Part shown: positions 6,752-34,827 of the stretch, piece after piece
How the letters are laid out: every line of letters starts with the position of its first letter
How positions within the stretch are numbered: the stretch's first letter is position 1
From: Escherichia coli
Lineage (GTDB): Bacteria; Pseudomonadota; Gammaproteobacteria; Enterobacterales; Enterobacteriaceae
Length of the DNA: 64,000 nt
Reading direction: 5' to 3' (one strand)
Assembly: GCF_048403405.1 (NCBI RefSeq)
Contig: NZ_CP183129.1
The notes under the pieces: model-generated
The model's database searches: none
Told to the model about the DNA's origin: nothing
The model's input: only the letters and a program-made list of their open reading frames with translations
Position numbers and translations under genes: made by a program

Positions 6752-7051
6752 TCAAGCTAACGAACGCAGTGATAACTCAAAAATAATCATCTCGGCCTGG
6801 CATGAGAAGGTGAAGGCCGCATCAAGCTCAACTTGCCCTTCCAGATCCTTAATCTTATAGGCCACGCTGGCCCCTTCATCTGCAGAGGATGCAGCGGCGG
6901 CAAGCTCTTTCAGTTTGGTCATAAAGGACTCTGCTTCTTCGCGGGTGGCAAAAAAACGCGAAAACTTACTGGTACAGTTGTCGTTATCAATCACCGTACC
7001 GATATCAATCGCACATCCTTTAGTACTGCATTTATCTACGACATCTTTCAT
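6752..7051 (-). CDS. yiiS: UPF0381/DUF406 protein YiiS
   Basis: 99-aa [30 protein letters not shown]... Probably co-transcribed with uspD. Confidence 0.85.
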
Positions 7052-7262
7052 AGGGCACCTCTGTATATTCGCCTCTCTGTCGATTACGACTTAAGAATAA
7101 TGCGCCGTTAAGGGAAGAACAAACAAGTAATGATCTTATGGATTACCATTTTTTTTGATATTGCTTAAGGTGAAGAGTTCAGAAGGATTTTCCGGGCATT
7201 GTCATTTGCATCGTGGAAATAACAATCCCGGAAAAAAATAGCAGTAAGAGATATATTAAAGG

Positions 7263-7703
7263 TTAATTACTTGATTTATTGTCGGCTTTATACTTCACAT
7301 CCTGGGTATCTTTACCATATTTATTTTCGCCTTGTGTGCCAACAAACGCACCAAGATCGATAAGCATCATCACCAGAATCAACGTCGGGACAAAACGCCC
7401 TACCGCCCATTGCCAGACACCCGGTAAAATCGCCCAGTTACCCGCCAGTAGCATCCACGCCACAATCATCAGAAATGCCCATGCGCCGGAACGCCCGCGA
7501 TCATGCAAGCGCTTAACGGTTACTGCCGCTGTTGGCCAGAGCAAGCACACAAGGCAAAACGCCGCAGTCTGAATATCGAGTAAATTTTTACCCGCCAGTG
7601 AGAAAAGCACCAGCATGCCTGCGAACCACAGGCCTATCCAAATCCAGAAATCACGGCGTCCAATACGCCCTTTAAATGAGAATAACCATTGCTGTATGGT
7701 CAT
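7263..7703 (-). CDS. yiiR: DUF805 inner-membrane protein YiiR
   Basis: 146-aa ORF MTIQQWLFSFKGRIGRRDFWIW..., the DUF805 signature. Confidence 0.85.
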   Translation of the reverse strand: MTIQQWLFSFKGRIGRRDFWIWIGLWFAGMLVLFSLAGKNLLDIQTAAFCLVCLLWPTAAVTVKRLHDRGRSGAWAFLMIVAWMLLAGNWAILPGVWQWAVGRFVPTLILVMMLIDLGAFVGTQGENKYGKDTQDVKYKADNKSSN

Positions 7704-7803
7704 GTAAGTTCCTTGATGGTTGTCTTTTCCAGGATTCTACCCTTTTGACAAGGGCGACAGATATCGTTTTAATCGGAGCCAGTCATAACAAAAGGTACTG
7801 TCA

Positions 7804-8403
7804 ATGAAGCCAGGGTGTACGCTGTTTTTTCTCTTATGTTCTGCATTAACCGTTACAACAACGGCGCATGCACAAACACCAGATACGGCAACGACCGCGC
7901 CTTATCTGCTGGCTGGAGCCCCTACTTTCGATCTCTCCATCAGCCAGTTTCGAGAAGACTTTAACAGCCAGAATCCCAGCCTGCCACTGAACGAATTTCG
8001 TGCCATCGACAGCAGTCCCGACAAAGCCAATCTCACTCGTGCTGCAAGTAAAATTAATGAGAACTTGTATGCTTCTACAGCGCTGGAGCGCGGTACCTTA
8101 AAAATCAAAAGCATTCAAATGACCTGGCTACCCATCCAGGGGCCAGAGCAAAAAGCCGCGAAAGCGAAAGCTCAGGAATACATGGCAGCGGTGATCCGCA
8201 CACTCACCCCATTAATGACCAAAACACAAAGCCAGAAAAAACTGCAGTCGCTACTAACGGCGGGGAAAAACAAACGTTATTACACCGAGACCGAAGGTGC
8301 ACTGCGTTATGTTGTCGCGGACAACGGCGAAAAGGGGCTGACCTTCGCTGTTGAACCGATTAAGCTGGCGCTATCTGAATCGCTTGAAGGTTTGAATAAA
8401 TGA
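7804..8403 (+). CDS. yiiQ: DUF1454 periplasmic protein YiiQ
   Basis: 199-aa ORF with signal peptide MKPGCTLFFLLCSALTVTTTAHA. Confidence 0.85.
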   Translation: MKPGCTLFFLLCSALTVTTTAHAQTPDTATTAPYLLAGAPTFDLSISQFREDFNSQNPSLPLNEFRAIDSSPDKANLTRAASKINENLYASTALERGTLKIKSIQMTWLPIQGPEQKAAKAKAQEYMAAVIRTLTPLMTKTQSQKKLQSLLTAGKNKRYYTETEGALRYVVADNGEKGLTFAVEPIKLALSESLEGLNK

Positions 8404-8510
8404 CAAAAAGCAAAGCCTTTGTGCCGATGAATCTCTATACTGTTTCACAGACCTGCTGCCCTGCGGGGCGGCCATCTTCCTTTATTCGCTTATAAGCGTG
8501 GAGAATTAAA

Positions 8511-9278
8511 ATGCGACATCCTTTAGTGATGGGTAACTGGAAACTGAACGGCAGCCGCCACATGGTTCACGAGCTGGTTTCTAACCTGCGTAAAGAGCTG
8601 GCAGGTGTTGCTGGCTGTGCGGTTGCAATCGCACCACCGGAAATGTACATCGATATGGCGAAGCGTGAAGCTGAAGGCAGCCACATCATGCTGGGTGCGC
8701 AAAACGTGGACCTGAACCTGTCCGGCGCATTCACCGGTGAAACCTCTGCTGCTATGCTGAAAGACATCGGCGCACAGTACATCATCATCGGCCACTCTGA
8801 ACGTCGTACTTACCACAAAGAGTCTGACGAACTGATCGCGAAAAAATTCGCGGTGCTGAAAGAGCAGGGTCTGACTCCGGTTCTGTGCATCGGTGAAACC
8901 GAAGCTGAAAACGAAGCGGGCAAAACTGAAGAAGTTTGTGCACGTCAGATCGACGCGGTACTGAAAACTCAGGGTGCTGCAGCATTCGAAGGTGCGGTAA
9001 TCGCTTACGAACCAGTATGGGCAATCGGTACTGGCAAATCTGCAACTCCGGCGCAGGCACAGGTTGTTCACAAATTCATCCGTGACCACATCGCTAAAGT
9101 TGACGCTAACATCGCTGAACAAGTGATCATCCAGTACGGCGGCTCTGTAAACGCGTCTAACGCTGCAGAACTGTTTGCTCAGCCAGACATCGACGGCGCG
9201 CTGGTTGGCGGTGCTTCTCTGAAAGCTGACGCTTTCGCAGTGATCGTTAAAGCTGCAGAAGCGGCTAAACAGGCTTAA
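8511..9278 (+). CDS. tpiA: triosephosphate isomerase
   Basis: 255-aa [26 protein letters not shown]...[20 protein letters not shown], full-length TpiA. Confidence 0.97.
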
Positions 9279-9288
9279 GTCTGACAGG

Positions 9289-9320
9289 TGCCGGATTTCA
9301 TATCCGGCACTTACTTTCCT
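9289..9320. terminator. hairpin gtgccggat-ttcat-atccggcac between convergent tpiA and cdh
   Basis: Perfect 9-bp stem directly after the tpiA stop. Confidence 0.65.
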
Positions 9321-9332
9321 TAACTCCTCGCC

Positions 9333-10088
9333 TTAACGCAAAATCTCACACTGATGATCCTGAATTTCCTCGGCTGAAGCACGGTTAAGCGTCAGTAGAT
9401 TTCGTTGTGTCGCCAGCAATACAAATGAGTTATCACTCTGCCGTACCATCGCCAGCCCGTAGCTTCCCATATGTTCCCGCGCCTCAGGTACTTCTTCTGC
9501 CAGCATCATAAATGGACTGCGTTGTACCAGTTCGCTTTCCGTTACCCGACGCGCCAGGTATTCATGCCCGCGCAAACCACCTGGCAGTGGCAACCAGCGG
9601 CTGCTGATGTTCGCCAGATTGTTATCCAGCTGTTCGCGCACATCAGGACGAATACAAGAGATATGAATATGAAAATGGTTTTGCGTACGCCCGGTGCGGG
9701 AGTTGATCGCCAAAGAAACCGCGCGATCGGGAACCGGCTGGCCGTATTTTTTGCTCATAAAATCACGCGCCTGCCAGGCCAACCAAAAGAAGTTCGGCGT
9801 TGAAGGATCGGTCAACAAAGGACTTTCAGTACCGTTAATACGATACGTTGGCATCAACAGATATTGCAGTGGGCCATTAAGATCTTTTAAAACCACGTAT
9901 CCGGCATTGGGTTTGACTTCCGCACATGGCGAAGGATTTTGATTTTGCTGTTGATTGGGCAAACATTCCTCAAGGACAATCTTACGTAATGTATCCGACT
10001 CTTCACCGGTTAATTTCCAGTAACCAATACCGGCAGCCACAACGGCGATAACTATCATCACCAAAAAAAGAAGACCCGCTTTTTTCAT
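9333..10088 (-). CDS. cdh: CDP-diacylglycerol pyrophosphatase Cdh
   Basis: The ORF contains [25 protein letters not shown]...; the 251-aa Cdh starts at the internal ATG at 10088. The ORF finder runs further upstream. Confidence 0.9.
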
Positions 10089-10139
10089 CTTTTTTTCCCT
10101 GTACCTCAAAGAGATGCAAGGGTAACGCAAAATCGTGAC

Positions 10140-10176
10140 AAATAAAAAACCCGGTCGCGAGAAACCACCGGGTTTG
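10140..10176 (-). terminator. sbp terminator (cccggtgg...ccgggtttttt on the - strand)
   Basis: Hairpin aaaaaacccggtcgcgagaaaccaccgggttt on the + strand. Read on the - strand it is a stem followed by a T-run. Confidence 0.6.
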
Positions 10177-10194
10177 ATAATTATCCTGGGGAAA

Positions 10195-11184
10195 TCAGCG
10201 TTTGCTGATCTGATCGAACGTACCGCCGTTAGCAAAATGCTCTTTTTGCGCTTTCGTCCAGCCGCCGAACTCTTCATCAATGGTGAATAACTTCAATTTT
10301 GGAAACGCATTTTCGTACTTTTTCGCTACCTCAGCGTCGCGCGGACGGTAGTAGTTTTTCGCGGCAATTTCCTGACCTTCTGGCGAGTAGAGATATTTCA
10401 GATAGGCTTCCGCCACCTCTTTGGTGCCTTTTTTCTCGACCACTTTATCGACCACCGACACGGTTGGCTCTGCGAGGATAGACTCACTCGGCGTAACGAT
10501 TTCGAATTTATCTTTCCCCAGTTCATTCGCTGCCAGCAGAGCTTCGTTTTCCCAGGCGATCAGTACATCGCCAATTCCGCGCTCGACAAAAGTGTTAGTG
10601 GAGCCGCGCGCGCCAGAATCCAGAACTTCGACGTTTTTATACAGTGCCCGAACAAAATCCTGTGCTTTTGCCTGATCGTTGTTGTTGTGATGCAGCGCGT
10701 AGCCCCAGGCTGCCAGGTAGTTCCAGCGCGCGCCACCAGAGCTTTTCGGATTAGGCGTGATCACCGAAACACCCGGTTTAATCAGATCGTTCCAGTCATG
10801 GATCTGCTTCGGATTGCCCTTACGCACCAGGAAAACAATGGTGGAAGTGTACGGTGCGGAGTTATCCGGCAGACGTTTGATCCACTCTTTATCAATCCGC
10901 CCGCGTTCCGCAATCGCGTCCACGTCATAGGCCAGAGCCAGAGTGACAACATCAGCTTCAATACCATTGATTACCGACGTCGCTTGTTTGCCTGAACCAC
11001 CGTGTGACTGACGAATCACCACGTTATCGCCAGTTTGCTGTTTCCAGTGGGCGCTGAATGCCTTGTTGTACTGTTCGTACAATTCGCGCGTTGGATCATA
11101 TGAAACGTTAAGAAGCTGAATATCCTTTGCCATAACGCTGGTTGCCGCCAGCAAAAATGTTAACCCTACGCCCCACTTGTTCAT
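10195..11184 (-). CDS. sbp: sulfate/thiosulfate ABC transporter periplasmic binding protein Sbp
   Basis: 329-aa ORF with signal peptide [19 protein letters not shown], full-length match. Confidence 0.95.
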
Positions 11185-11329
11185 CGCCCGACTCTCTTAT
11201 GTTGTGTTGTGATGAGCAAAGCGTGCCAGAAGGTTAACCAAACATTAAAGAATAAAAAAAGATTGGCTATAACTTGCGGGTATATGTTGAGGGATTAAAA
11301 AGGCGGAAGAAATCCGCCTCATATTGCTG

Positions 11330-11450
11330 ACAAAGTGCGCTTTATCGATGCCGGATGCGGCGCGAACGCCTTATCAGGCCTACAAAAGTTTGCAAATTCA
11401 ATAAATTGCAGAATTCACGTAGGCCTGATAAGCGAAGCGCATCAGGCATT
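11330..11450. repeat. REP/BIME cluster between sbp and pfkA
   Basis: Repeated gccggatgcggcg...cgccttatcaggcctac and gtaggcctgataagcgaagcgcatcaggca palindromic units. Confidence 0.7.
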
Positions 11451-11503
11451 TTTGCTTCTGTCATCGGTTTCAGGCTAAAGGAATCTGCCTTTTTCCGAAA
11501 TCA

Positions 11504-12466
11504 TTAATACAGTTTTTTCGCGCAGTCCAGCCAGTCGCCTTTGAACGGACGCTTCATGTTTTCGATAGCGTCGATGATGTCGTGGTGAACCAGCTGTTCG
11601 TTCTGGATACCTACGCAACGACCGCCGTAACCTGCCAGCAGCAGATCGATAGCGTAAGCGCCCATACGGGAAGCCAGAATACGGTCGTAAGGCACCGGAG
11701 AACCACCGCGCTGGATGTGGCCCAGCACAGTTGCGCGGGTTTCACGACCGGTTTCTTTCTCGATGAAATGCGCCAGTTCGTCAACATCACACATATGTTC
11801 GGTAATCGCCACGATCGCGTGTTTTTTACCTTTCGCGATACCCGCTTTGATTTCGTTTACCAGGTCTTCACGGCTGAATTCAACTTCCGGAACTACAACG
11901 AATTCACAGCCACCGGCAATGGCCGCAGCCAGGGTCAGATCGCCACAATAACGACCCATCACTTCCACCACGGAAATACGCTGGTGAGAAGAAGAGGTAT
12001 CACGCAGACGGTCGATCGCTTCTACAACGGTGCTCAGCGCAGTGAAGAAACCGATAGTGTAGTCAGTGCCTTTGATGTCGTTGTCGATAGTGCCAGGCAG
12101 ACCGATGCACGGGAAGCCCATTTCGGTCAGACGCATTGCACCCATGTAGGAACCGTCACCGCCGATAACCACCAGCGCGTCGATACCACGTTTTTTCAGG
12201 TTTTCGATAGCCACGGCGCGGATGTTCTCGTCGCGGAATTCCGGGAAACGCGCAGAACCGAGGAACGTACCACCACGGTTGATCATGTCAGACACGCTGT
12301 AACGGTCTAGCTGTACCATACGGTCTTCATACAGACCCAGATAGCCGTCATAAATGCCCATTACTTCCAGACCTTCTGTCAGCGCAGAACGAACAACCCC
12401 GCGAATTGCGGCGTTCATGCCTGGCGCATCACCGCCGCTTGTCAACACACCGATTTTCTTAATCAT
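11504..12466 (-). CDS. pfkA: 6-phosphofructokinase I
   Basis: The ORF contains [25 protein letters not shown]...; the 320-aa PfkA starts at the ATG at 12466. Confidence 0.97.
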
Positions 12467-12646
12467 GACTACCTCTGAACTTTGGAATGCAAAATGAAAT
12501 CTGTTGCCGGAAGTCTTCTTGCACATCGAAGTGATCCAACGAATGTGCAAATAGTATAACAATCACTTCCTGCTGAATTGATTCAGGTCAGGCCAAATGG
12601 CGGTATTTTATACACAAAATGCGGGTCTGGCTCTCTTTTATACTGA

Positions 12647-13549
12647 TTATGAAAGCATAGACCGTTTACCCTCCCTGGGTACGACGGAACAGGGGTCCTG
12701 ATGGATAATCACATCCGATCCCGGAAAACGCCGTAAAATAGCCTGCTCTACCTGATCCGCCACCATATGTGCCTGAACCAAAGGCAGAGAGTCTTCCATT
12801 TCCAAATGAATCTGAATAAAGCGGGTCGGCCCTGACTGCCGCGTGCGAAGATCGTGAGCGCCGCTAACACCCGGCCAGGAAGTCACGATATCAATAATTT
12901 CTTGCCGTTCTTCATCAGGCAATGCGCGATCCAGTAATGACTGTACCGCCTCATATCCCATGCGTAACGCGCTATATAAAATATAGATGCCGATTCCCAA
13001 TGCAAACAGAGCATCGGCGCGATGCCAGCCATACCAGGACAACCCCAGCGCCAGCAGAATTGCGCCGTTCATCATAACATCAGACTGGTAATGTAGCATA
13101 TCAGCCCGCACCGCCTGGCTTTGCGTCCGGCGCACCACCCACCGCTGAAACGAGACAAGGATAATCGTACAAATTAGCGCCACAATTGTCACGATAACCC
13201 CGACGCCTGGATCTGTCATCGGTGTTGGAGATACCAGATGTTGAATACCCGTCAAAAAGAGGAATAGTGCCGAACCGGAGATAAACATACTTTGCGCCAG
13301 CGCCGCGAGGGACTCAGCTTTACCGTGACCAAACGAGTGATTATCGTCGGCAGGTTGCAGGGAATATCGCACCACCAGTAAATTCGTCAACGACGCGCCG
13401 ATATCCACCAGCGAATCCACCAGCGCGGCGAGAATACTCACCGACCCGGTATACCACCATGCAAAAATTTTAATCAGCAATAGCAGCGAAGCCATCGCCG
13501 TCGCAGCAATCGCCGCCCGACTGACCAGCCGTCCATAAGATTGATTCAT
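12647..13549 (-). CDS. fieF: cation-diffusion-facilitator Fe/Zn efflux protein FieF (YiiP)
   Basis: The ORF contains [35 protein letters not shown]...; the 300-aa protein starts at 13549. Confidence 0.95.
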
Positions 13550-13630
13550 AAATACTCCCGCTATCAACTGACGCTAGTATAACGGAAGCAAATCATCTGC
13601 AATGCATTAAGCAGCAGGCAAATTGAGGAT

Positions 13631-13658
13631 AAAAAAAACCCCCACATCATGTGGGGGA
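13631..13658 (-). terminator. cpxP terminator (cccccacat-cat-gtggggg plus T-run on the - strand)
   Basis: Perfect 8-bp stem flanked by an A8 run on the + strand (T8 on the - strand), just downstream of the cpxP stop. Confidence 0.7.
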
Positions 13659-13697
13659 AGACAGGGATGGTGTCTATGGCAAGGAAAACAGGGTTTA

Positions 13698-14198
13698 CTA
13701 CTGGGAACGTGAGTTGCTACTACTCAATAGCTTCAACGATGAACTTTTTTGCCATTGCGTCACGTCGCGCAACTGCTCCATTCGTTGTTGATGTTTCTCG
13801 TTTAAAACCGCTTGCTGCTCCGGCGTTAACAGGCGATACATTTGGTTGCGGACTTTTGCCATCTCAACCTGACGAGCAATTTGCTCATTCGCCATTTTTT
13901 CTGCCTGCGCGCGCACAGCGTTTTCATCAAAATTTTCTGCGGTGACAAGGCGATGCATTGTCTCCAGTTCGCTAACATTAACAGGAGGCTGTTCGTGCCG
14001 GGCCTGTTGCATAAGATCTCGCATCTGCTGACGCTGATGTTCGGTTAAACTTATGCCGTCGAACATATGGCTCTGCGTACTGCGCTGCGTAAGTTCTTCA
14101 CCCGGATGCCAGTTATCGCCTGAACCGACTTCAGCAGCGTGGCTTAATGAACTGACTGCCAGCGTTGAGGCCATGACGGCAGCGGTAACTATGCGCAT
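13698..14198 (-). CDS. cpxP: periplasmic adaptor/inhibitor of the Cpx response CpxP
   Basis: The ORF contains [24 protein letters not shown]... and the LTxxQ motifs. The 166-aa protein starts at 14198. Confidence 0.95.
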
Positions 14199-14277
14199 CA
14201 TTTGCTCCCAAAATCTTTCTGTCGCGATTCAACGATAGAGAGTTTACGATTCAGGCTGCAAACATGCGTCAGGGGGT

Positions 14278-26343: not shown

Positions 26344-27168
26344 ATGCAAAACATTACCCAGTCCTGGTTTGTCCAGGGAATGATCAAAGCCACCACCGAC
26401 GCCTGGCTGAAAGGCTGGGACGAGCGCAATGGTGGTAACCTGACGCTGCGCCTGGATGACGCCGATATCGCGCCTTATCACGGCAACTTTCATGCACAAC
26501 CGCGCTATATCCCGCTCAGCCAGCCCATGCCTTTACTGGCAAATACACCGTTTATTGTCACCGGCTCCGGCAAATTCTTCCGCAACGTCCAGCTTGATCC
26601 TGCGGCTAACTTAGGCGTCGTAAAAGTCGACAGCGACGGCGCGGGCTACCACATTCTCTGGGGGCTAACTCACGAAGCCGTTCCAACCTCTGAACTTCCG
26701 GCGCACTTCCTCTCTCATTGCGAACGCATTAAAGCCACCAACGGTAAAGATCGGGTGATCATGCACTGCCATGCCACCAACCTGATCGCCCTTACCTACG
26801 TACTGGAAAACGACACCGCGGTCTTCACTCGCCAACTGTGGGAAGGCAGCACCGAATGTCTGGTAGTGTTCCCGGATGGCGTCGGCATTTTGCCGTGGAT
26901 GGTGCCCGGCACCGACGAAATCGGCCAGGCGACCGCACAGGAAATGCAAAAACATTCGCTGGTGTTGTGGCCCTTCCACGGCGTCTTCGGCAGCGGTCCG
27001 ACACTGGATGAAACATTCGGTTTAATCGACACCGCAGAAAAATCAGCACAAGTATTAGTGAAGGCTTATTCGATGGGCGGCATGAAACAGACCATCAGCC
27101 GTGAAGAGCTGATAGCGCTCGGCCAGCGTTTCGGCGTTACACCACTCGCCAGTGCGCTGGCGCTGTAA
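26344..27168 (+). CDS. rhaD: rhamnulose-1-phosphate aldolase
   Basis: The ORF contains [33 protein letters not shown]...; the 274-aa RhaD starts at ATG 26344. The ORF finder starts inside the REP cluster. Confidence 0.95.
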
Positions 27169-27177
27169 GGAGCAAAC

Positions 27178-27492
27178 ATGATCCGCAAAGCCTTTGTCAT
27201 GCAGGTTAACCCCGACGCCCACGAAGAGTATCAGCGTCGGCATAATCCAATCTGGCCGGAACTGGAAGCAGTGTTGAAATCTCACGGTGCGCATAACTAC
27301 GCCATTTACCTCGACAAAGCGCGTAATCTGCTATTTGCCACAGTAGAGATTGAATCTGAAGAACGGTGGAATGCGGTAGCCAGTACTGATGTTTGCCAAC
27401 GTTGGTGGAAATATATGACCGACGTTATGCCAGCTAACCCGGATAACAGCCCAGTCAGTAGCGAGCTGCAAGACGTGTTTTACCTGCCTTAA
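27178..27492 (+). CDS. rhaM: L-rhamnose mutarotase RhaM (YiiL)
   Basis: 104-aa [48 protein letters not shown]... Confidence 0.9.
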
Positions 27493-27532
27493 TGAGTTGC
27501 GGTGCCGGAAAATATCCAGCACCGCGCCTTCA

Positions 27533-28927
27533 TCAGAAGAAGTATTTAAAGCGAACGCGTGCCCCGTAACGGTCATCAGTATCATCACCGTGTTTTTTAT
27601 CACCGTCGCTATCCAGAATGGAGTAATACGTCCCGAGGTAAATATTAAAGTTCTCCATATCCATCACATTAGCGAACTGATAAGACGCATGAATGGTATG
27701 AATGGTGTACGTCCCTTCATCATCAATCCAGCAGTCGTTATCACAAACTACACCGCTGAATTCATCAATCTTATTGTGCGCGTAGATATAACCGAGCTCG
27801 AAACGTTTCCACAGCGCGTTAATCCCGGCAGTGAAATCTTTCTCATTATTAGCATCTAAATAGGCGGTATTAAGATTAACCACGACGCCATTTTCCGGAT
27901 CCGTTTTCAGGCCATTCCAGGTCATGCTCATACCATAGCCGGTACGATCGGACTGATCGACAAAATTACCCTTGCTATCGGTATAACCATAAGCATTATT
28001 TACCACGTTCGCTTCCATCGCTGCGGAAACGGTGAATTCTTCTGTCGGCGACCAGGCAATTACCGGACGCAGATAAGCAACATTTTTCTGCTGCTCCATA
28101 TCGCGTCCATGATAATTACCGTCATTATATAAAGATGTTCCGTCTTCAAGTAACGTGTTTAATTCAAAATACCAGTTATCGAGTTGTTTGCTGACGAGGA
28201 AATTACCGCCAGCGTTAGAGCGCCCGCGGCCCTCTTTCATCATATAGATATAACCGCTGCCATCGTCATAAAGATCGTTCGCAGTATTACCGGAATGTTC
28301 AACAAAGGTATCCTGATTCAGCGGGAACATATCATAGGCTTCGAAACGACCGACTTTGACCTTCCAGTCATTCTCTTTCCCAAAGAAGAATACCGCGTCA
28401 TCAATATTCACTGAACCGTGCATATCCCCCAGCGGTTGTGCGGAGAACCCGGCGAAATAACCATTATCCAGTTTTCGCATACCATCAAAACCTAACAGAA
28501 TACGACCATTGAGATTCCACTGTTCATTAGTGGGATCGCTATTCACATCAGCGTTGGTCATTGCCAGCAGGCCATGATTACTTTCTGCATCCATATTAAA
28601 TTCTACGTCGCCGTAGATTTTTAAATCGCCATAACCTGAGAGCAAAAGATTAGGTGAGGTGGAATTTTTCTTTGCAGATTCCGCCGTTGCCTGTCCATTT
28701 ACCGGCGTATTGCCCTGGGCAGCCTTAATTTCGCGGATCTCAGCGGCTTGTTGTGTCTGCAGCTGTTTAACCTGGCTCTCTGCTTTTGCTGCCCGCATTT
28801 CTGCCGCTTCCAGGCGTTCTTCCAGCAATGCCATGCGTTGTTCCAGCGTTAAATGCTGTGTTTTTGCCATTCCGGTACTACATGCCAATAATAAACCGAT
28901 GGCTAAAGATAATGTCGATTTTTTCAT
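27533..28927 (-). CDS. carbohydrate-selective outer-membrane porin (OprB/ScrY-like) with an N-terminal periplasmic coiled-coil. An accessory gene absent from K-12 at this position.
   Basis: 464 aa. Signal peptide MKKSTLSLAIGLLLACSTGMA. A roughly 50-residue heptad coiled coil (LEQRMALLEERLEAAEMRAAKAESQVKQLQTQQAAEIREIKAAQ). An aromatic/Gly-rich beta-barrel body ending in the C-terminal ...RFKYFF. Convergent with rhaM and divergent from frvA. Confidence 0.75.
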   Translation of the reverse strand: MKKSTLSLAIGLLLACSTGMAKTQHLTLEQRMALLEERLEAAEMRAAKAESQVKQLQTQQAAEIREIKAAQGNTPVNGQATAESAKKNSTSPNLLLSGYGDLKIYGDVEFNMDAESNHGLLAMTNADVNSDPTNEQWNLNGRILLGFDGMRKLDNGYFAGFSAQPLGDMHGSVNIDDAVFFFGKENDWKVKVGRFEAYDMFPLNQDTFVEHSGNTANDLYDDGSGYIYMMKEGRGRSNAGGNFLVSKQLDNWYFELNTLLEDGTSLYNDGNYHGRDMEQQKNVAYLRPVIAWSPTEEFTVSAAMEANVVNNAYGYTDSKGNFVDQSDRTGYGMSMTWNGLKTDPENGVVVNLNTAYLDANNEKDFTAGINALWKRFELGYIYAHNKIDEFSGVVCDNDCWIDDEGTYTIHTIHASYQFANVMDMENFNIYLGTYYSILDSDGDKKHGDDTDDRYGARVRFKYFF

Positions 28928-29403
28928 TATTTACGTTCCCTGAAATAAAAGAGACCCTACGCTTTCCAAAAGGAATACGTATATAGAGAAATATAAGGTG
29001 TGCACTTTCGAATTTTTAATCCAACTTCAGCAGGCCGATGGATAGTATCCCGCTGCATAATATGAGTAAATCCGCTGATTTCCTGGAACGTGAGGAATAT
29101 AACAATAGTGCCGTTTTTAACCAAATATCGTAAAAAATATTAGATATAATTCACGCTGACTCATAAGCCACAAATATAAATAACCTTGCTGCAAAACATG
29201 TGCGGCAGTTAAACATTCACAACATCATTAAATAATGATTTTTTATTCACTGCATTTATTTTTCCCATCAATATGTGCCTTACACCGCAAAATTTATCCT
29301 TCACTCTGCCTTATATTGTCACGACTTCACGACATATCCGCGCTCATCACAAAACCGCCCCGCCGTTACAATTAACTATAATATTTTTTCATGGAGTCCA
29401 ATA

Positions 29404-29850
29404 ATGGCAGCACTTACTGCAAGCTGTATTGACCTGAATATTCAGGGCAATGGCGCTTATTCCGTTCTGAAGCAGTTGGCGACAATGGCGTTACAAAACG
29501 GTTTTATCACCGACTCACACCAGTTCCTGCAAACCCTGCTGCTGCGCGAAAAAATGCACTCCACCGGTTTTGGTTCCGGCATCGCCGTGCCGCACGGTAA
29601 AAGCGCCTGCGTTAAACAACCGTTCGTGTTATTCGCCCGCAAAGCGCAGGCCATTGACTGGAAAGCCAGCGACGGCGAAGACGTCAATTGCTGGATCTGC
29701 CTCGGCGTGCCGCAAAGTGGCGAAGAGGATCAGGTCAAAATCATCGGCACACTGTGTCGCAAAATTATCCACCAGGATTTTATCAACCAACTGCGACAGG
29801 GCGACGCCGACCAGGTGCTTGCTTTGTTAAATCAAACCCTCAGCTCATAA
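29404..29850 (+). CDS. frvA: PTS fructose-like IIA component FrvA
   Basis: The ORF contains MAALTASCIDLNIQGNGAYSVLKQLATMALQNGFITD...HSTGFGSGIAVPHGKS; 148 aa from ATG 29404. Confidence 0.9.
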   Translation: MAALTASCIDLNIQGNGAYSVLKQLATMALQNGFITDSHQFLQTLLLREKMHSTGFGSGIAVPHGKSACVKQPFVLFARKAQAIDWKASDGEDVNCWICLGVPQSGEEDQVKIIGTLCRKIIHQDFINQLRQGDADQVLALLNQTLSS

Positions 29851-34148: not shown

Positions 34149-34194
34149 TGCATTTATCACCAAAATCAAAAATGTTTAACGCAGGCTGTTATAG

Positions 34195-34827
34195 TCATCG
34201 ACCATTTCGTTGTACTCGCATAATGCTCTCGGGAAATGAGTCGTCGACCATCCAGCTTGTGTTTGCATCCTGAAGTTGCTCTTTATCCCAGTCAGAGTAC
34301 GGAACTTTATCTCTGACGCGGCGAACATATTTTTTAGCCTCGAGTTGATACTGGTCTGCCGAATTAATGAACGAGAAATTCATACCGCCTTTATCCGCTT
34401 CTTTGGCCTGCGTCACCAGCGTTTTCAGTTCAGAGACTTTCTTCATTGCCGCATCAACATCAAACTTCTCTTGCGAAATCAGGTTATTAATTTGTTTCGC
34501 TGAAATCATGACTGCCAGAGAGTAGTAGTGGAATGTTTTCCCTTCTCTTTGTTCAATATTTTTCAGTTCCGCAAGCTGGCGCTTATCGTTAATTTCCTGA
34601 ATCGCCGCATGATAAGATTCTGCTACAGGTTCAAAGGCTTCAAGATTTTTTAAGAATGTCTGGTGCAGCGTTTTCCCTTTCGCAAACGCATCGTCTTTAT
34701 AATTTTCCTGGGTGTAATATTTATCCATTTCGTTAATGGTATTACCCAACGCCACGGCAGCATAAATATAACTTACCGCCACGCCATCAATAGGTTGCAG
34801 CGCAGGCGTTAACGCCACTACACGCAT
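34195..34827 (-). CDS. yiiG: DUF3829-family protein YiiG. Only about 210 codons are available here and there is no signal peptide or lipobox, so this is probably a 5'-truncated remnant.
   Basis: ORF MRVVALTPALQPIDGVAVSYIYAAVALGNTINEMDKYYTQ... through ...RVQRNGR. The first in-frame ATGs lie inside the T-run of the fdhD terminator, 50 bp after the fdhD stop. Confidence 0.6.
   Translation of the reverse strand: MRVVALTPALQPIDGVAVSYIYAAVALGNTINEMDKYYTQENYKDDAFAKGKTLHQTFLKNLEAFEPVAESYHAAIQEINDKRQLAELKNIEQREGKTFHYYSLAVMISAKQINNLISQEKFDVDAAMKKVSELKTLVTQAKEADKGGMNFSFINSADQYQLEAKKYVRRVRDKVPYSDWDKEQLQDANTSWMVDDSFPESIMRVQRNGR

Follow-up and report, generated by a model that had tools for sequence, protein, structure and literature searches.

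An orphan porin gene of the RafY family beside rhaM in Escherichia coli, probably ancestral and lost in K-12

Introduction

In the stretch of Escherichia coli chromosome analysed here (64,000 nucleotides of contig NZ_CP183129.1, referred to as the window) a gene for an outer-membrane protein stands between rhaM and frvA. The locus raises the questions to which porin family this protein belongs, whether its gene was inserted or inherited, and whether it serves either of the two systems at its sides. A preliminary description had regarded it as an accessory OprB/ScrY-like glycoporin, inserted in this strain, that would admit a substrate of the frv phosphotransferase system and FrvX or of the rha system (a rhamno-oligosaccharide). 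The answer that we consider probable is a different one: the gene encodes a chromosomal sugar channel of the RafY family, an orphan of ancestral origin, which was lost in K-12 and has no functional tie to frv.

Results

The gene and its family

The open reading frame of 464 codons starts with ATG and is convergent with rhaM, whose stop codon lies at 27492 on the plus strand (spacer 40 bp), and divergent from frvA (plus strand, start near 29404; spacer 476 bp); position and orientations are as they had been described before. The protein ends in RFKYFF, the terminal residue being Phe. It is identical to RefSeq WP_000749944.1, "carbohydrate porin" in the annotation of a 100%-identical genome, the same name is carried by the gene across thousands of genomes, and the O157 homologue has been named rafY2 (PMC4809568). 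The GC content is 44.9% in the gene and 34% in the upstream DNA, against 50.4% in the whole window. The features of the locus are collected in Table 1.

Table 1. Features of the rhaM-frvA interval, in window coordinates
Feature	Coordinates	Strand	Basis
CDS, 464-aa RafY-family (Porin_8) outer-membrane porin	27533..28927	-	ORF, Pfam, annotation, RafY identity
Putative signal peptide, residues 1-21 (MKKSTLSLAIGLLLACSTGMA)	28865..28927	-	Read from sequence, family alignment, E. coli alleles
Predicted periplasmic coiled-coil helix, residues 28-70, six heptads	28718..28846	-	AF2, heptad register, Sugarporin_N
Low-complexity disordered linker, residues ~71-99	28631..28717	-	pLDDT, allele variability
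Predicted 16-strand beta-barrel, residues ~100-464	27536..28630	-	AF2 model
Convergent stop-codon spacer rhaM/porin, 40 bp with hairpin	27493..27532	.	RNA fold
Porin-specific upstream region, not in K-12, 34% GC	28928..29268	-	Breakpoints, GC, promoter scan, upstream alignment
Presence/absence segment, 1775 bp	27494..29268	.	blastn vs K-12
frvA-proximal spacer (frvA promoter side), common to K-12, outside the porin indel	29269..29403	+	blastn

The Pfam search placed the protein in PF16966 (Porin_8 / RafY glycoporin) with E=3e-154 and 513.9 bits (cut-off 25), the match covering residues 104-464 and the model in its full length (positions 1-372 of 372), and Porin_8 was matched by 48 of 48 relatives as well. 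Compared with plasmid RafY, represented by the porin that follows rafR-A-B-D on plasmid NZ_CP090323.1, 360 of 464 residues (77.6%) were identical, with zero gaps. The same Pfam search gave no OprB (PF04966) hit for the window porin, and LamB (PF02264) was hit neither by this protein at E<=1 nor by the 48 relatives at E<=0.01. The NCBIfam scan of the porin returned nothing meaningful, while searches of the PDB with the single protein and with the 48-sequence profile yielded chance hits or none, the profile finding no PDB chain at E<=10. Since Porin_8 is matched in full length and OprB and LamB are not matched, the ScrY/OprB-like identity proposed in the preliminary description was rejected; the family found is again one of porins. 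The N-terminal Sugarporin_N domain (PF11471) scored below threshold on the window porin (15.3 bits, the cut-off being 25.7; E=0.024; residues 27-54) and was matched by 17 of the 48 relatives (best E=5.9e-7).

The protein thus shows the features of the RafY family, namely the HMM match, the collinear similarity to RafY, and a predicted 16-strand barrel with a signal peptide and a C-terminal aromatic residue. Linkage to a raf (alpha-galactoside) operon is absent in E. coli and present for the positional orthologues of Klebsiella and Raoultella; this linkage marks the founding member, and the Pfam family is not defined by it. The porin is a member of an already described family and of low novelty, and its assignment mainly sets right an annotation and an earlier interpretation.

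Predicted architecture

The signal-like N-terminus, read directly from the sequence, is followed by KT with a putative cleavage site before K22; the lipobox-like motif LLAC within it is, in the family alignment, kept by the E. coli alleles only. In the AF2 model it is followed by a helix of 43 residues (pLDDT about 83-86) with a single clear heptad register, which has hydrophobic residues at 11 of 14 a/d positions, compared with at most 6 of 14 in the other registers. The segment at residues 27-54 is nearly invariant across 18 closer relatives (alignment A1), and in the family alignment E29, Q30, R31, L35, E36, R38, L39, E43 and R45 are invariant. The linker has pLDDT values below 50 at residues 71-97 and is the most variable part among the E. 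coli alleles (variable columns 69-91).

For the barrel 16 long strands were counted in the model, not the 18 that are a feature of LamB and ScrY; 16 strands are listed for the RafY family in TCDB (PMC4827864). The signal peptide, the N-terminal coiled coil and the barrel with C-terminal Phe of the preliminary description were each borne out by the sequence, the heptad register and the model. In the AlphaFold model the barrel fold was closer to porins of the OprP/OmpF type than to ScrY, LamB or OprB, and OprB stood at rank 4 in the Foldseek search (E=8.5e-12). A long and almost invariant internal loop (residues ~195-240) is, judged from the model, a candidate constriction loop that probably narrows the channel, and the assembly is probably trimeric, as in the best structural matches.

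Allelic conservation and the upstream DNA

Six E. coli lineage alleles were sampled, and all six are full-length and intact. The dN/dS ratio was 0.03-0.08 for the 14 allele pairs with any amino-acid difference, at porin dS values (0.03-0.28) comparable to those of rhaD and rhaM. Only 6 residues of the barrel vary among the six alleles, and their sole indel removes exactly one heptad and preserves the coiled-coil register.

Upstream of the porin a promoter-like site, TTAAAA-18-TATATT, lies at 29019..28990. When the region was scanned for sigma-70 promoters and terminators, sites resembling promoters were no commoner than in shuffled sequence. A block at ~29085-29135 is conserved with Citrobacter; the cross-genus upstream alignment revealed blocks shared by E. 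coli and Citrobacter only, and no operator in common with the raf-linked copies. The window yielded 25 matches in the scan for CRP sites, where chance alone would give 27; a CRP site with two mismatches upstream of the porin, at 29089-29104, is a weak lead only. No RNA family was found by the Rfam scan of 27300-29600.

Remnants of rafB, rafA, rafR, rafD, the HTH-cupin regulator and azlC were searched for by tblastn in the 476 bp upstream and in the K-12 spacer, and none appeared below E=0.5. At the E. coli locus neither a regulator nor a catabolic partner was found adjoining the porin, and rafR, rafA, rafB and rafD are all absent. Since the porin alone is left in E. coli, the gene is an orphan rafY, and because rafR is absent at the locus, control of the chromosomal porin by RafR is unlikely. 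As there is no adjacent regulator or partner, and the upstream DNA is AT-rich with no recognisable operator, the porin might be silent under most conditions.

From here it is a short step to regarding the gene as a silent relic of an ancestral chromosomal raf operon, unexpressed and useless in E. coli and being lost. The missing raf genes and regulator and a promoter signal not above chance would suit this reading, as would the loss of the gene from half of E. coli without obvious consequence and the occasional defective variants (P0002, which lacks residues 241-269, and HS30-1, which retains 77 bp only). However, a neutral relic would show frameshifts at divergences of this order, whereas the alleles remained full-length at low dN/dS, the one indel respects the heptads, the barrel hardly varies, and strains without frv keep the whole upstream region of the porin, up to window position 29386. 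A mere relic is, on this evidence, improbable.

The K-12 junction, orthologues and origin

Comparison with K-12 by blastn confirmed that this strain lacks the gene and has a short spacer, 300 bp between rhaM and frvA. The presence/absence segment is missing there, 164 bp standing in its place; the left breakpoint lies 1 nt past the rhaM stop, and from window position 29269 onward the identity to K-12 is 92%. Similarity between the 164-bp filler and the porin segment was not detected; when the filler was compared by blastn (word size 7) with the window and every retrieved locus, no match was better than E=0.1, so the filler sequence itself gives no polarity for the indel. The filler falls into two deeply separated alleles with an identity of about 87.6%.

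In four other genera the gene has a positional orthologue at the 3' end of the rha cluster, with the same convergent junction to rhaM: Citrobacter (loci L004-6, L009), Klebsiella (L007, L011), Raoultella (L010) and Scandinavium (L012). The amino-acid identity of these orthologues is 67-85% overall (85% to Citrobacter and 75% to Klebsiella), in line with the neighbouring FdhD and RhaM. The GC3 of the porin follows each host genome, and the porin genes lie 4-6 GC points under their flanks in every genus; low GC is thus a trait of the family. Since the allelic dS of up to 0.28 equals that of rhaD and rhaM, the gene was present before the sampled E. coli lineages diverged. The orthologues beside rhaM and the flank-like dS together speak against the view of an inserted, accessory gene and indicate an ancestral gene that the K-12-type allele has lost, most likely as an old presence/absence polymorphism. 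That presence is the ancestral state is the most likely polarity, as judged from the other genera; of the close protein hits considered for an Escherichia outgroup, P0002 proved to be an internal-deletion variant from E. coli and P0003 Citrobacter-like, so that neither serves. An alternative haplotype of great age is also conceivable, as is a regain of the gene by recombination.

Recent horizontal acquisition would mean that rafY from a raffinose plasmid, or a small islet, was inserted between rhaM and frvA in some lineages. Plasmid rafY does exist in E. coli, at 200 plasmid places, parts of it are 88-99% identical in DNA to the chromosomal genes, and both the low GC of the gene and its upstream DNA relative to the flanks and the patchy presence in the species would fit such a transfer. 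Against it stand junctions with no mobile-element genes, repeats or att-like features, an overall identity to plasmid RafY of only 77.6%, a 5' third of plasmid rafY more diverged from the chromosomal gene than that of the Citrobacter orthologue, and the dS, the shared chromosomal slot and the genus-wide low GC described above, which make recent acquisition quite improbable.

Relation to frv and rha

The porin was present in 2557 of 5426 complete E. coli genomes (~47%), the carriers including BL21, O157:H7, ST131 and Nissle, and the filler in 2826-2839. By haplotype, 1377 genomes have both porin and frv, ~1180 the porin only, and ~2830 frv only. The porin was kept in ~97% of the 1218 genomes without frv against 33% of the 4208 with it; this survey, of the kind called for in the preliminary description, showed no co-occurrence with frv. 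In strain GN05505, where frvABXR is deleted, the porin protein is 100% identical to that of the window (dN=0), the comparison of frv-positive and frv-negative B2 strains (ST131 and Nissle) gave a dN/dS of 0.03, and frv is not a neighbour of the Citrobacter and Klebsiella orthologues. The porin is not functionally tied to frv.

On the rha side, the spacer to rhaM contains an 11-bp G+C-rich hairpin, terminator-like but with no U-tract (dG -28.1 kcal/mol, z=-5.9 on the porin strand; -21.5, z=-3.95 on the rhaM strand); the other genera have the same architecture in different sequence. When the porin upstream region was compared with the rhaSR-rhaBAD and rhaT promoters for likeness to Rha boxes, exact matches of 11-13 nt only were found, in AT-rich DNA, the longest falling in the frvA-proximal part common to K-12. 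No rhamnosidase is present at the E. coli locus. The proposed link to rha keeps its conserved adjacency, yet the genes are convergent over a strong hairpin with no Rha-box similarity upstream. An entry route for a frv or rha substrate is highly improbable in view of these results and of the purifying selection in strains with and without frv alike, even though the porin adjoins frvA divergently, as it does also in Trabulsiella, its adjacency to rhaM is conserved across genera, and a family member in Gilliamella lies beside a GH78 alpha-rhamnosidase, a GPH permease and rhaM.

Discussion

The reading of the gene as an orphan, ancestral member of the RafY family leaves the question of what its product would do. 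The protein would be exported, lose its signal peptide and form a 16-strand beta-barrel in the outer membrane, from which the coiled coil of about 43 residues would hang into the periplasm via the flexible linker. Plasmid RafY and the gene neighbourhoods of the family lead us, by analogy, to infer a wide, weakly selective diffusion channel, through which di- to oligosaccharides (raffinose-family sugars, maltodextrins, sucrose-type glycosides) could cross the outer membrane. Plasmid RafY is cited as a wide general-diffusion channel raising the uptake of raffinose, sucrose and maltodextrin, and family members sit in raf, scr-like (PfkB-porin-EIIBC-GH32), GH32 plus permease, GH3, GH5, GH65, GH38 and GH78 clusters. 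In the searchable literature no expression or transport data on the E. coli chromosomal protein were found.

It is also conceivable, although we think it rather unlikely, that the protein serves as a "spare" porin with a large channel, expressed under certain conditions only, its presence or absence being an ancient polymorphism possibly under selection, and that the gene swaps barrel segments with plasmid rafY by recombination. If this were true, oligosaccharide scavenging or compensation of porin loss would be traded against exposure to bulky antibiotics, phages and colicins, and about half of E. coli (BL21, O157:H7, ST131 and Nissle among them) would possess an unrecognised outer-membrane route that K-12-based permeability models ignore.

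The wider interest of the orphan RafY-family gene itself is modest, and lies in an intact, selectively constrained copy in BL21, O157:H7, ST131 and Nissle 1917 that is absent from K-12. GlyP, a RafY-family porin of Klebsiella pneumoniae, substitutes when derepressed for the lost OmpK35/36 and gives general nutrient permeability (bioRxiv 10.64898/2026.03.29.715108). Since such a relative can replace major porins, the E. coli porin could matter as well: for nutrient competition in the gut, for the antibiotic permeability of porin-deficient clinical strains, and for the outer-membrane protein background in BL21 expression work.

Comparison with known systems

The best structural likenesses (OprP, Omp-Pst1, OmpT/OmpU, VhChiP and DcaP of Acinetobacter) are 16-strand trimeric porins of other Pfam families, with only 8-14% identity to the window porin. 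ScrY and LamB (PF02264) are likewise outer-membrane sugar channels, ScrY with a comparable periplasmic N-terminal coiled coil (PF11471), and OprB of Pseudomonas (PF04966) is likewise a carbohydrate-associated porin; in Serratia a RafY-family gene occupies the slot of ScrY, in the layout scrK-porin-scrA-scrB. The GlyP operon (glyR-permease-hydrolase-porin) comprises a LacI-type repressor and catabolic partners, whereas the E. coli porin has none nearby.

Plasmid RafY (rafRABD-Y of the pRSD2 type; PF16966; TCDB 1.B.15) belongs to the same family and has the same length of 464 residues and the same layout of signal peptide, coiled coil, linker and barrel. The two proteins are 88-100% identical over barrel residues ~161-440 and 38-65% identical over the N-terminal ~120 residues. 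RafY is plasmid-borne, whereas the window porin is chromosomal and is not preceded by rafR, rafA, rafB or rafD. Among the chromosomal relatives, Scandinavium and Citrobacter have, as E. coli does, a lone porin by rhaM, with an HTH/cupin regulator and azlCD upstream in Citrobacter; upstream of the E. coli gene lies frvA or the scar left by a frv deletion. The clusters of Klebsiella and Raoultella share the same fdhD...rha segment and rhaM junction but retain alpha-galactoside genes upstream, rafR-rafA-rafB standing there directly before the porin.

Location and family of the porin gene

The porin reading frame lies between rhaM and frvA, where the preliminary description had placed it. The end of rhaM, on the opposite strand, and the porin stop codon face each other across 40 bp in a convergent arrangement, and the plus-strand start of frvA makes this gene divergent from the porin, so that both orientations proposed earlier agree with the strands and coordinates found. 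Comparison with K-12 by blastn located the breakpoints at 27493/27494 (1 nt past the rhaM stop codon) and 29268/29269; thus 1775 bp in the window stand where K-12, whose rhaM-frvA spacer is 300 bp, has 164 bp of unrelated sequence (the filler), and the gene is missing from K-12 as had been claimed. The GC content is 44.9% in the porin gene, 34% upstream of it and 50.4% in the window.

Coordinates of the porin gene and its neighbours (window), of the predicted protein segments (AlphaFold2, residues) and of the neighbourhoods of other family porins
Feature	Position	Strand	Remarks
Porin ORF	28927 to 27533	minus	464 aa
rhaM	27178-27492	plus	stop 40 bp from porin stop codon
frvA	start ~29404	plus	divergent from porin
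Signal-peptide helix	residues 3-16		AlphaFold2
Single long helix	residues 28-70		AlphaFold2
Disordered linker	residues 71-97		AlphaFold2
16 long beta-strands	from residue 100 on		AlphaFold2
Long loop	residues 195-240		AlphaFold2
GH32 invertase, permease			family-porin neighbourhood
Serratia PfkB-porin-EIIBC-GH32 (L024, L025, L041, L042)	~8840-14260		scrK-scrY-scrA-scrB order
GH3, GPH permease			family-porin neighbourhood
GH5, permease			family-porin neighbourhood
GH65, HAD-family hydrolase (possibly beta-phosphoglucomutase)			family-porin neighbourhood
GH38, PTS genes			family-porin neighbourhood
Gilliamella GH78 alpha-L-rhamnosidase, GPH-type permease, then barrel-only porin (L035/L036 MAGs)	~6900-11100		family-porin neighbourhood

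Several other rearrangements were seen in the region. The rhaM junction has further variants, O111:H8 (H28) and EP91B (H23) among them: a fucO-like lactaldehyde reductase gene adjoins rhaM in some E. coli, and lies between rhaD and rhaM in Citrobacter and Klebsiella; one strain has IS1 between rhaM and frvA. In the window strain the annotation gives yiiG (~34176-34818, between fdhD and frvR) as a pseudogene with a frameshift and an N-terminal truncation. A transposase and a truncated hypothetical gene between fabY (yiiD) and yiiE (~42586-44400), seen in the 100% identical genome of TUM14771, look like the insertion of a small mobile element and have no relation to the porin.

The protein belongs to the RafY family and not to the OprB/ScrY-like family proposed earlier: in HMMER searches against Pfam the whole PF16966 model (Porin_8, 'porin-like glycoporin RafY') matched residues 104-464 with E=3e-154, and neither OprB (PF04966) nor LamB (PF02264) matched. 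Sugarporin_N (PF11471), a model of the periplasmic extension found in porins of ScrY type, scored 15.3 bits at residues 27-54, under the 25.7-bit cut-off. Among 48 family members Porin_8 was found in all, Sugarporin_N in 17 (best E=5.9e-7) and LamB or OprB in none; NCBIfam has no model covering the porin. The family is small (233 clusters at 50% identity among 1.84 billion proteins) and many members consist of the barrel alone, at 355-395 aa. A plasmid copy in E. coli stands at the end of an operon of LacI regulator, GH36 alpha-galactosidase, LacY-type permease and GH32 invertase, which is rafR-A-B-D-Y, and its product is identical to the chromosomal porin at 360 of 464 positions (77.6%) with zero gaps.

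The gene is therefore already known and annotated as a member of a described family. RefSeq names it 'carbohydrate porin', and the exact protein is public under the title 'carbohydrate porin [Escherichia coli]', with 1000 contigs or more carrying it. A rafY homologue was annotated rafY2 in strains without rafRABD in a 2016 O157:H7 paper (PMC4809568), and a 2026 GWAS paper gives rafY in 45 isolates, only 23 of which had rafABD. No published test of the chromosomal E. coli gene was found in the searchable literature.

Predicted structure and processing

No solved structure was detectable by sequence, even with the family profile at E<=10. An AlphaFold2 model built on a 48-sequence alignment (mean pLDDT 80.7) agrees with the architecture described earlier, i.e. 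signal peptide, periplasmic coiled coil and barrel. The Nissle 1917 allele (L046 2501-3874; ~window 28817-28837) is without exactly seven residues, 31-37 (RMALLEE); as this equals one coiled-coil heptad, the register is preserved. A rare E. coli allele, P0002 (L054 8001-9308), has an in-frame deletion of 29 residues (241-269), and since two predicted barrel strands are lost it is probably non-functional.

The signal peptide carries a lipobox-like L-L-A-C (residues 13-16, window 28880-28891), the Cys16 of which is common to the six E. coli alleles compared and is absent from the orthologues of other genera and from plasmid RafY. The porin may be processed either by signal peptidase I, with the cut after GMA21, or by lipidation at Cys16.

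Distribution in E. coli and relation to frv

At a coverage of at least 80% the porin gene was present in 2557 of 5426 complete E. coli genomes, BL21, O157:H7, O55:H7, ST131 and Nissle 1917 among them. The K-12-type filler was found in 2826-2839 genomes, thus each allele is found essentially where the other is missing. frvAB occurs in 4208 genomes and a contiguous rhaM-porin-frvA in 1377; approx. 1377 genomes have both porin and frv, 1180 only the porin and 2830 only frv. The porin had been tied to frv, but this synteny survey argues against a functional link, because the gene is present in about 97% of the frv-less and in 33% of the frv-positive genomes. Strain GN05505 has lost the frv operon by a deletion reaching into yiiG, and still its porin protein matches that of the window at 100% identity and the porin upstream region is kept to window position 29386. 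The deletions in frv-less GN05505 and Nissle both run from the frvA side into yiiG.

Evolutionary history

Orthologues of 67-85% identity, convergent with rhaM, occupy the same slot in Citrobacter (four loci), Klebsiella (two loci), Raoultella and Scandinavium (one locus each); in Trabulsiella frvA and the porin are divergent as in E. coli. In Klebsiella and Raoultella homologues of rafR, rafA and rafB, 65-75% identical to the plasmid proteins, precede the porin in the same orientation. The convergent spacer is short in every genus and holds a G+C-rich hairpin whose sequence differs. Between genera the identity of the porin is comparable to that of the flanking FdhD and RhaM, and its GC3 follows the host genome. 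The gene is 4-6 GC points under its flanks in every genus compared, therefore its low GC is a family trait and does not point to recent import.

The comparison within E. coli took in six alleles (window, GN05505, ST131, Nissle, O157 and BL21), all of them intact. The dS of the porin (0.03-0.28) matches that of rhaD (0.05-0.31) and rhaM, and dN/dS is 0.03-0.08 in the pairs differing in protein sequence; the porin has thus co-diverged with its core neighbours under purifying selection. Expression of the porin in the laboratory may be absent, but the intact alleles and the low dN/dS speak against a decaying relic.

The gene had been described as inserted. With the orthologous slot and the core-like dS, the most economical reading of the E. 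coli and other-genus sequences compared is instead a probable loss of an ancestral porin gene in the K-12-type haplotype. Searches of the porin segment and of the other genera gave no detectable source of the filler. The filler (L001 3494-3658 in K-12; L044 1501-1677) has two deep forms, approx. 87.6% identical with indels, one at least 99% identical to K-12 in 2137 genomes and the other in 690, and on these grounds both haplotypes look old. Among the sampled strains dS reaches 0.31 in rhaD and 0.37 in rhaM (window 26344-27492). Lower values are expected for E. coli core genes, so the locus may be unusually diverse or recombining.

Plasmid rafY (L003 8003-9397; L051 and L052 8001-9395) is mosaic relative to the chromosomal gene. 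Over nt 1-450 their identity is 51-76%, a greater divergence than that of the Citrobacter orthologue, and over nt ~720-1170 it is 88-99%, against 72-80% between E. coli and Citrobacter. The plasmid allele of P0029 type and the ST131 (B2) chromosomal allele share 96-99% identity over nt 901-1170. This pattern suggests that the plasmid and chromosomal copies recombine.

Regulation

No adjacent regulator lies beside the E. coli porin, and neither raf-gene remnants nor similarity to a Rha-box were found upstream; the proposed link to rha is thus without supporting evidence. No CRP site above chance was detected upstream, no promoter signal above shuffled sequence and no Rfam element in the porin region. 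Upstream sequence blocks are common only to E. coli and Citrobacter.

Proposed function and comparison with known porins

Outside the rhaM-syntenic group the family members lie in varied glycoside-utilisation clusters (see the table), and a few neighbourhoods have no relation to sugars. The Serratia loci carry a Porin_8 protein in the slot expected for ScrY, of the LamB family, which looks like a non-orthologous replacement. The Gilliamella locus looks like a candidate rhamnoside-uptake cluster; a rhaM homologue lies nearby (L035 494-802).

The comparisons above show to which family the porin belongs and what its evolutionary status is; its channel properties we infer from the model and by analogy. 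It would be a diffusion channel of 16 strands in the outer membrane, probably a trimer, which would pass di- to oligosaccharides and bear a periplasmic coiled coil of the ScrY type. The residual interest lies in the role of this orphan and putatively large-channel porin, which half of E. coli carry. That many sugar pathways use one channel family would suit a pore of large width and low selectivity, and such a pore has been reported for plasmid RafY. In the case of GlyP, a Klebsiella porin of the RafY family, a fitness gain in OmpK35/36-deficient cells was described when its LacI-type repressor was mutated (2026 preprint, bioRxiv 10.64898/2026.03.29.715108), and induction by lactulose has been reported for a Salmonella homologue.
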